A DNA stretch of 64,000 nt from Escherichia coli (GTDB lineage: Bacteria; Pseudomonadota; Gammaproteobacteria; Enterobacterales; Enterobacteriaceae). Within the stretch, counting starts at the first letter, position 1. Every line of letters begins with the position of its first letter. Position numbers: made by a program. Positions 29,101-32,100 of this stretch are shown here, in pieces. The DNA is taken from NCBI RefSeq assembly GCF_003334385.1, contig NZ_QOWN01000003.1, one strand, 5' to 3'.

Positions 29101-32100
29101 CCAGCCTGAGCTGGAAAACGCCATCCGCGAAGCCTATGCACAGCTTTCCGCCGATGACGAAAACGCCTCTTTTGCGGTGCGCTCCTCCGCCACCGCAGAA
29201 GATATGCCGGACGCTTCTTTTGCCGGTCAGCAGGAAACCTTCCTCAACGTTCAGGGTTTTGACGCCGTTCTCGTGGCAGTGAAACATGTATTTGCTTCTC
29301 TGTTTAACGATCGCGCCATCTCTTATCGTGTGCACCAGGGTTACGATCACCGTGGTGTGGCGCTCTCCGCCGGTGTTCAACGGATGGTGCGCTCTGACCT
29401 CGCATCATCTGGCGTGATGTTCTCCATTGATACCGAATCCGGCTTTGACCAGGTGGTGTTTATCACTTCCGCATGGGGCCTTGGTGAGATGGTCGTGCAG
29501 GGTGCGGTTAACCCGGATGAGTTTTACGTGCATAAACCGACACTGGCGGCGAATCGCCCGGCTATCGTGCGCCGCACCATGGGGTCGAAAAAAATCCGCA
29601 TGGTTTACGCGCCGACCCAGGAGCACGGCAAGCAGGTTAAAATCGAAGACGTACCGCAGGAACAGCGTGACATCTTCTCGCTGACCAACGAAGAAGTGCA
29701 GGAACTGGCAAAACAGGCCGTACAAATTGAGAAACACTACGGTCGCCCGATGGATATTGAGTGGGCGAAAGATGGCCACACCGGTAAACTGTTCATTGTG
29801 CAGGCGCGTCCGGAAACCGTGCGCTCACGCGGTCAGGTCATGGAGCGTTATACGCTGCATTCACAGGGTAAGATTATCGCCGAAGGCCGTGCTATCGGTC
29901 ATCGCATCGGTGCGGGTCCGGTGAAAGTCATCCATGACATCAGCGAAATGAACCGCATCGAACCTGGCGACGTGCTGGTTACTGACATGACCGACCCGGA
30001 CTGGGAACCGATCATGAAGAAAGCATCTGCCATCGTCACCAACCGTGGCGGTCGTACCTGTCACGCGGCGATCATCGCTCGTGAACTGGGCATTCCGGCG
30101 GTAGTGGGCTGTGGAGATGCAACAGAACGGATGAAAGACGGTGAGAACGTCACTGTTTCTTGTGCCGAAGGTGATACCGGTTACGTCTATGCGGAGTTGC
30201 TGGAATTTAGCGTGAAAAGCTCCAGCGTAGAAACGATGCCGGATCTGCCGTTGAAAGTGATGATGAACGTCGGTAACCCGGACCGTGCTTTCGACTTCGC
30301 CTGCCTACCGAACGAAGGCGTGGGCCTTGCGCGTCTGGAATTTATCATCAACCGTATGATTGGCGTCCACCCACGCGCACTGCTTGAGTTTGACGATCAG
30401 GAACCGCAGTTGCAAAACGAAATCCGCGAGATGATGAAAGGTTTTGATTCTCCGCGTGAATTTTACGTTGGTCGTCTGACTGAAGGGATCGCGACGCTGG
30501 GTGCCGCGTTTTATCCGAAGCGCGTCATTGTCCGTCTCTCTGATTTTAAATCGAACGAATATGCCAACCTGGTCGGTGGTGAGCGTTACGAGCCAGATGA
30601 AGAGAACCCGATGCTCGGCTTCCGTGGCGCGGGCCGCTATGTTTCCGACAGCTTCCGCGACTGTTTCGCGCTGGAGTGTGAAGCAGTGAAACGTGTGCGC
30701 AACGACATGGGACTGACCAACGTTGAGATCATGATCCCGTTCGTGCGTACCGTAGATCAGGCGAAAGCGGTGGTTGAAGAACTGGCGCGTCAGGGGCTGA
30801 AACGTGGCGAGAACGGGCTGAAAATCATCATGATGTGTGAAATCCCGTCCAACGCCTTGCTGGCCGAGCAGTTCCTCGAATATTTCGACGGCTTCTCAAT
30901 TGGCTCAAACGATATGACGCAGCTGGCGCTCGGTCTGGACCGTGACTCCGGCGTGGTGTCTGAATTGTTCGATGAGCGCAACGATGCGGTGAAAGCACTG
31001 CTGTCGATGGCTATCCGTGCCGCGAAGAAACAGGGCAAATATGTCGGGATTTGCGGTCAGGGTCCGTCCGACCACGAAGACTTTGCCGCATGGTTGATGG
31101 AAGAGGGGATCGATAGCCTGTCTCTGAACCCGGACACCGTGGTGCAAACCTGGTTAAGCCTGGCTGAACTGAAGAAATAAAATAAATCCCCGGCGGCGTT
31201 TAGTCGCCGGGGTTATGTGATCCCCGAAGATGAAACTTATTCAATCTCTTCACAGACATCCTGCGTTAAACGCCGCATAATATCTTTTCTTAACAAAAAC
31301 TTTTGTATTTTACCTGAGGTAGTTCGCGGTAGTTTTTCGATTACCACGATATGTTCAGGATATTTATATTTTGCGACCCGTTTACGGCTAAAAAAAGCCA
31401 CTACCTCTTCCAGCGATAATGAATGATGCGGCGCTTTCAGCACGACATAAGCGCATGATCGTTCACCTAAACGTTCATCGGACATTGCAACCACACAGGC
31501 ATCGTGAATTTTAGGATGCTGCAATAAAATATCTTCCACTTCACGGCTGCTAATATTTTCGCCGCCGCGGACAATAATATCTTTTTTGCGTCCGGTAATT
31601 TTTATATAGCCAGCCTCATCCATACGGCAGAGATCGCCGCTGTAATACCAGCCTTCTTCATCCAGGGCACGGGCGGTTAATTCAGGTTCATCAAAATACC
31701 CCATAAACACATTGGGGCCACGCGAGGCTTCTTCACCTTCGCAACCTGGCGGTAAGGTCTTGCGTGCGTCATCGACCACTTTAATCTCTACACCTGCGGC
31801 AGCGTAACCATCGGTGTGCATAAAGCGCGACAAAGGATCATCGAGATTCACCACCGCATGCGGCGAACTTTCTGTGGAACCATAAACACTTAATAATTTA
31901 ATGCCGCGCTGCTGGCATTCACGCGCCACTTTTTTGGGGATTGTGGTTCCGCCGCAAAGAAAGAAACGCAGCGCTGAAAGGTCCGCGGGTTGTTTCTCTA
32001 GTACATTCAAAAGATCATAGACAAACGGCGTTGCGCCGAGCATACAGGTGCAACGCTGCTGCTCAAGCAGCGCGAGACACGCATCAGGAGTGAAAATATC

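Follow-up and report, generated by a model that had tools for sequence, protein, structure and literature searches.

An exact 15-nt match between the aroH operator and the fadK coding sequence of Escherichia coli is most probably a coincidence

The analysis concerned a 64,000-nt stretch of Escherichia coli DNA (RefSeq assembly GCF_003334385.1, contig NZ_QOWN01000003.1; hereafter, the window) that carries the genes aroH, ppsR, ppsA, and fadK (Table 1). The region shares 100% identity with E. coli K-12 MG1655 and runs in reverse orientation relative to NC_000913.3; a position in NC_000913.3 is obtained as 1,815,914 minus the window position. There are exactly two occurrences of the 15-mer TTCTCTAGTACATTC in the window, at 27632-27646 (copy 1) and 31994-32008 (copy 2). 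Both are on the plus strand, with a spacing of 4,362 bp (~4.4 kb). A first-pass annotation had already pointed to this pair; it placed copy 1 correctly, whereas its coordinates for copy 2 (31985-31999) were 9 nt too low. Copy 1 forms part of the operator through which the repressor TrpR controls aroH, and copy 2 lies inside the coding sequence (CDS) of fadK. Our results indicate that the two copies are, with high probability, unrelated sequences that are identical by chance.

The assignment of copy 1 to the aroH TrpR operator, made in the first-pass annotation, was borne out, as the matrix scan located an 18-bp operator core with which the copy overlaps. Copy 1 thus represents the aroH member of the set of TrpR operators of E. 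coli (trpLEDCBA, aroH, trpR, mtr, and aroL). The aroH operator was the top-scoring site of the window, with 21.0 bits in-sample and 16.6 bits leave-one-out. It is a conserved palindromic site that sits upstream of aroH, between this gene and the ppsR stop codon. Of 13 loci from Escherichia and Citrobacter that retain the ppsR-aroH junction, 12 have its core, ATGTACTAG-N4-CTAGT, and so do five further E. coli strains. The exception was a Citrobacter metagenome-assembled genome (locus L006, near position 12381), where the first operator CTAG reads CTAA (ATGTACTAACAAACTAGTTCA); ppsR ends with TAA there, and one CTAG is left.

The same DNA also encodes the end of ppsR. In the sense of the gene, the context of copy 1 is ...CGC CGA ATG TAC TAG AGAACTAGTGCATTAGC..., and the copy contains the last two codons and the stop of ppsR, with ATG TAC TAG lying inside the operator and the stop codon forming part of the distal CTAG. 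Copy 1 is functional DNA, an operator half that doubles as the final codons and stop of ppsR. In addition, the operator palindrome is predicted to fold as a 10-bp hairpin in the RNA at the 3' end of ppsR (27622-27645, minus strand; -13.7 kcal/mol, z -3.2). A run of seven U residues begins 5 nt past the hairpin (the T-run extends to ~27609), and the consensus scan called the hairpin terminator-like. One and the same stretch of DNA may therefore act as the end of the ppsR CDS, as the ppsR terminator, and as the aroH operator.

The location of copy 2 within the fadK CDS was confirmed by annotation, codon phase, and translation, and the copy contains exactly one TrpR-like half-site (CTAGTAC/GTACTAG), as had been claimed. 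It occupies positions 1,783,906-1,783,920 in NC_000913.3, which in the older genome version (U00096.2) become about 1,781,930-1,781,944 (~1,781.9 kb). The K-12 allele around the copy is GAATGTACTAGAGAAACAACCC. Its codons, (TT)G AAT GTA CTA GAG AA(A), specify Leu292-Asn-Val294-Leu-Glu-Lys297 of the 548-aa FadK, within ...PFVYDLLNVLEKQPADL..., and the site lies ~880 nt inside the CDS, where it overlaps no promoter. The reading frames of the two copies differ (CGA ATG TAC TAG in ppsR and TTG AAT GTA CTA GAG AAA in fadK), so no shared peptide accounts for the identity. Folding of the RNA around the fadK copy gave no structure (z +0.39), and the Rfam scan of the window returned no match at either 15-mer copy. 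Pairing between the two copies at the RNA level was considered and rejected: both have the same sense on their mRNAs, which precludes base pairing between them, and the fadK copy is unstructured. The annotated start of fadK, a gene expressed under anaerobic conditions, varies between records. The protein has 566 aa in NC_000913.3 (1782977-1784677) and 548 aa in records annotated with the Prokaryotic Genome Annotation Pipeline (PGAP); the NC_000913.3 start is 54 nt further upstream (32937 in the window; region 32884-32937), and both ATG codons share one open frame.

An exact identity of 15 nt in the same orientation and only 4.4 kb apart might reflect a common origin of the two copies. They could have arisen by a small duplication or by gene conversion, or be what is left of a dispersed repeat or a mobile element. 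The identity, however, ends abruptly. The match is exactly 15 nt long, the adjoining bases differ on both sides, and the flanks of the two copies, compared over 30-100 nt, have an identity of 0.18-0.21, where random sequence gives 0.25. The end of the identity at 15 nt together with flanks that are 18-21% identical shows that nothing was duplicated, and duplication or a mobile element was rejected as the source on this basis. A dispersed repeat or segmental duplication is also not indicated by the copy number, as the short core does not extend and is present in two copies only in the window. When two 41-mer queries were compared with E. coli genomes, each had a median of one match per genome, and neither hit the site of the other. 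A stretch of 15 nt is far below the length required for homologous recombination. Moreover, fadK of the outgroups shows ordinary diverging codons at this site, and the identity was reached by one point change. Common descent of the two copies is thus hardly credible.

The view that an exact 15-nt repeat is unexpected in 64 kb, put forward in the first-pass annotation, proved to be wrong. Since ~2 x 10^9 position pairs face ~1.07 x 10^9 possible 15-mers, even a random 64-kb sequence should contain one to two direct exact repeats, and the simple expectation N^2/2/4^15 gives about 1.4-1.9 direct 15-mer repeats. The window contains 10 maximal exact repeats that are 15 nt or longer, namely 2 direct and 8 inverted, the latter including two inverted 17-mers. 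In simulations with Markov models of orders 1, 3, and 5, the mean number of direct repeats of this length was 1.9, 2.9, and 5.1, respectively (observed, 2), and the number in either orientation was 3.9, 5.7, and 8.5 (observed, 10); direct repeats of 15 nt or more arose at least once with a probability of 0.84-1.00. With up to one mismatch allowed, 126 distinct direct 15-mer near-repeats were found in the window. Under uniform composition, a given 15-mer is expected analytically to recur ~0.009 times in a 4.64-Mb genome. For the window, an expectation of zero holds only for this one pre-specified 15-mer and does not cover the occurrence of some 15-mer repeat anywhere in the window. In its length, its number, and the absence of flank similarity, the aroH/fadK pair therefore resembles the background of exact k-mer repeats in bacterial genomes, which the Markov nulls describe. 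Nine further repeats of at least 15 nt share the window, some of which are listed in Table 1, and their number fits the same nulls.

Several observations nevertheless weigh against coincidence. About 20 15-mers hold the operator CTAG, each with a chance of ~1.2e-4 of recurring in the 128 kb of the two strands, which sums to ~2e-3; this operator-specific probability is ~20-fold lower again when the depletion of CTAG is counted, since the motif was found 12 times in the window and ~250 occurrences would be expected from base composition (~20-fold depletion). The second copy is only 4.4 kb away from the operator and is a perfect copy of a functional half-site, and GTACTAG/CTAGTAC occurs in the window only at the two 15-mer copies. 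In addition, RegulonDB counts 17 TrpR interactions in the data set of Cho et al. The low a priori probabilities are, however, post hoc, because the repeat was picked from ~10 for touching a known site. What sets the aroH/fadK repeat apart from background k-mer repeats is only the rare CTAG and the contact with a textbook operator.

Scoring of the fadK copy as an operator was based on a symmetric matrix built from five operators, of which trp, trpR, mtr, and aroL were extracted from NC_000913.3 and aroH was the fifth. The known operators scored 14.0-21.1 bits leave-one-out. The 18-mer at the fadK site, GTACTAGAGAAACAACCC, reached 4.8 bits with all five operators in the matrix and 3.7 bits with aroH left out, i.e., at least 10 bits below the weakest known operator. 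Its first half alone contributed +9.7 and +7.4 bits, respectively, and its second half (AAACAACCC) contributed -4.9 and -3.7 bits. The number of positions in the window that scored at least as high as the fadK site was 35-79, which extrapolates to ~2,500-5,700 per genome. The 18-bp palindrome of the operators (GNACTAG ... CTAGTNC, with the CTAG motifs 4 bp apart) was not found at the fadK copy. The copy reproduces one half of the aroH operator exactly (GTACTAG plus flanks) but has no inverted partner, carrying AAACAACCC in place of the required AACTAGTNC, and it differs from the TrpR operators also in being off-promoter and unconserved. As a single half-site with no partner 8 bp away, it is presumably not a working operator.

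The first-pass annotation had also offered the fadK copy as a cryptic weak TrpR site, which would mean that a holo-repressor dimer settles transiently on the lone GTACTAG with little or no effect on transcription. The 15 nt identical to a proven operator half, the score of the first half-site (+7.4 to +9.7 bits), and the restriction of GTACTAG to the two copies in 64 kb, where CTAG is so strongly depleted, fit such a site. Lawson and Carey are said to have crystallised TrpR in 1993 on half-site DNA as tandem dimers, and given such crystals a half-site contact would be physically possible. However, the second half-site at the 8-bp spacing is missing, the total of 3.7-4.8 bits compares with at least 14 bits for real operators, and the position deep inside a CDS is neither promoter-proximal nor conserved. 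The occupancy data, which are indirect, and the polymorphism described below argue in the same direction, and we therefore found the weak-site proposal unsupported and consider it improbable.

The TrpR targets of E. coli are given as trpEDCBA, mtr, trpR, aroL, and aroH (PMC5343134). Chromatin immunoprecipitation on microarrays (ChIP-chip) was performed for TrpR by Cho et al., and a re-analysis of these data in the 2025 TARJIM preprint reported six peak windows, at 1319.75-1322.25, 1785-1788, 1983.5-1986.5, 3302-3305.5, 3883-3891, and 4629.5-4631.5 kb (PMC12776088). The trp and trpR promoters lie at ~1,323.1 and ~4,632.7 kb in NC_000913.3 and fit the peak windows only after subtraction of ~2 kb; thus, these peak windows are given in an older genome numbering. 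After the same subtraction, the mtr promoter (~3,305.9 kb) also falls within a peak window, and the aroH operator (1,788.27 kb, ~1,786.3 kb in the older numbering) falls inside that at 1785-1788 kb. The fadK copy (1,783.91 kb, ~1,781.9 kb in the older numbering) is outside all six peak windows of PMC12776088 in either numbering. Two of the peak windows, 1983.5-1986.5 and 3883-3891 kb, match no classical operator, and aroL is covered by none. The literature search found no paper naming both TrpR and fadK, and for TrpR studied by chromatin immunoprecipitation with exonuclease digestion (ChIP-exo) it turned up nothing on fadK. An overview of genomic systematic evolution of ligands by exponential enrichment (SELEX) listed TrpR only as a family name, and an i-modulon preprint mentioned the Tryptophan i-modulon and not fadK.

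Conservation of the fadK site was assessed with 21 usable fadK orthologues (from Escherichia, Citrobacter, Kosakonia, and others), obtained from a single scan of genomes that represent species. GTACTAG was present at the site in 0 of the 21 orthologues, and CTAG was present in one, that of Escherichia sp. E1V33 (GAATTTGCTAGAGAA). In fadK of Citrobacter and Kosakonia, 7-11 of the 15 positions differ, and other residues are encoded. When all 15-nt stretches of fadK are ranked by conservation, that of copy 2 falls at the 2nd percentile, or at the 7th if only Escherichia is considered, and this low conservation is the opposite of what extra constraint would lead one to expect.

Within the species, alleles were counted as exact 41-mers centred on the fadK site in 5,426 complete E. 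coli genomes. The K-12 allele GAATGTACTAGAGAA was found in 2,596 genomes (~48%), the allele GAATTTACTAGAGAA in 2,041, and the allele GAATTTACTGGAGAA in at least 344. Five genomes from the non-K-12 allele classes all read GAATTTACT(A/G)GAGAA. The base that makes the repeat exact is that at position 32004. All other E. coli alleles examined, and likewise the five representatives of other Escherichia species, have T at this position, in a TTA or TTG codon (Leu). Because T occupies this position in every outgroup Escherichia, G is the derived state, and the derived G/T change, non-synonymous in replacing Leu294 with Val, completed what had been a 14/15 near-match. In the proposed course of events, the Escherichia ancestor would have read GAATTTRCTNGARAA at the fadK site, matching the operator half at no more than 14 of 15 bases, a quality that the 126 direct near-repeats of the window also reach. 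A single recent T-to-G change, now in roughly half of the sequenced E. coli including K-12, would have made the match exact.

The polymorphism also bears on TrpR binding, since about half of the E. coli genomes do not have the K-12 allele and the five sequenced others carry T for G. A narrower variant of the weak-site idea holds that, in the lineages with the derived Val294 (GTA), the newly created GTACTAG half-site binds holo-TrpR weakly yet to a measurable extent, which would give a strain-specific, tryptophan-responsive contact within fadK and show the first step in the de novo birth of an operator; we regard this as a very slim possibility.

Proximity (4,362 bp) and identity to an operator half are all that would speak for the fadK copy as an auxiliary operator acting together with the aroH operator, by looping or as a roadblock, and tuning aroH, ppsA, ppsR, or fadK to tryptophan. 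Intragenic auxiliary operators exist for other repressors, e.g., lac O2, and the likeness to lac O2 in lacZ and gal OI in galE consists in a repressor-site-like sequence within a nearby coding region. Those operators, however, are complete and conserved, lie a few hundred bp from the main operator, and are bound by looping repressors, whereas fadK offers a half-site that is 4.4 kb distant and polymorphic within the species. To our knowledge, no kilobase-scale DNA looping by TrpR has been described. All of the evidence against weak binding applies here too. Moreover, a selected auxiliary site should be conserved alongside the main operator; the latter is kept across Escherichia and Citrobacter, but GTACTAG is absent from all 21 orthologues and the K-12 allele from about half of E. 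coli, and this pattern counts against an auxiliary role. The probability of such a role appears vanishingly small.

Thus, the coincidence reading, which the first-pass annotation had left beside the weak site, is supported by the expected number of repeats, by the 3.7-4.8 bits of the fadK copy against 14-21 bits for the operators, by its absence from the 21 orthologues, and by its position outside the six peak windows. The sequence facts, the repeat statistics, the low conservation, and the polymorphism are direct results of this analysis; from the motif scoring and the secondary re-analysis of the ChIP-chip data, we infer that TrpR does not bind at fadK in vivo. We likewise infer that the fadK copy has no regulatory role and is not a working operator.

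Two observations on the surrounding genes concern individual strains. In E. coli O55:H7 DEC5B (locus L026), the annotation marks both fadK and ydiQ as frameshifted pseudogenes (4143-5785 and 728-1493, respectively), which suggests that the ydiQRST-fadK cluster is dispensable in some lineages. In E. coli NCCP 13717 (NZ_CP115984.1), the match to the 7.5-kb aroH-fadK region is split into two pieces, and the annotation under the match includes an IS1B transposase; the region thus carries a strain-specific insertion of the insertion sequence IS1. Elsewhere in the window, a perfect inverted repeat at 23657-23689 has 15-nt arms and a 3-nt loop (AAATGGACGGCGATG ATA CATCGCCGTCCATTT); its RNA fold (-25.1 kcal/mol, z -7.3) is probably that of a terminator between genes. 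Structured RNAs recognised by Rfam are included in Table 1.

Table 1. Features of the 64-kb window (window coordinates; ORF, open reading frame; sRNA, small RNA)
Feature	Position	Strand	Remarks
aroH CDS	26433-27479	-	Controlled by the operator; RefSeq annotation mapped to the window, ORF list
aroH TrpR operator, 18-bp core GTACTAGAGAACTAGTGC	27625-27642	-	Two CTAG motifs, 4 bp between them; matrix scan
Copy 1	27632-27646	- (sense GAATGTACTAGAGAA)	aroH TrpR operator, promoter-distal half; also 4 nt of the ppsR CDS
ppsR CDS	27636-28469	-	ORF list, RefSeq annotation
ppsA	28802-31180	+	ORF list, annotation
fadK CDS (548-aa PGAP model)	31237-32883	-	ORF list, RefSeq annotation
Copy 2	31994-32008	-	fadK nt 876-890 of the 1,647-nt CDS; single GTACTAG half-site
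Polymorphic base making the repeat exact	32004	-	G in K-12 (GTA, Val294)
Direct 15-mer repeat	1723/33745
Inverted 17-mer repeat	12704-12720/27097-27113		One arm inside aroH
Inverted 17-mer repeat	34409-34425/36824-36840
Inverted 16-mer repeat	1118-1133/53344-53359
Phe leader (pheST)	16638-16762	+	Rfam gathering threshold; not near either copy
STnc540	20603-20761	+	Rfam gathering threshold; not near either copy
RprA sRNA	45435-45542	-	Rfam gathering threshold; not near either copy
RydB sRNA	51146-51206	+	Rfam gathering threshold; not near either copy

The results serve as a calibration for reading bacterial sequence at this scale: an exact 15-mer repeat in 64 kb is expected background (~2-5 direct repeats and 4-8 in total), and such repeats deserve flagging only if they extend further, recur, or are conserved. 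If the fadK half-site were bound by TrpR after all, it would be a minor case of a nascent, lineage-specific repressor contact and would involve no new mechanism. For the biology of E. coli, the fadK copy carries little weight, being a chance match present in part of the species, and the aroH operator that it resembles is already textbook knowledge.

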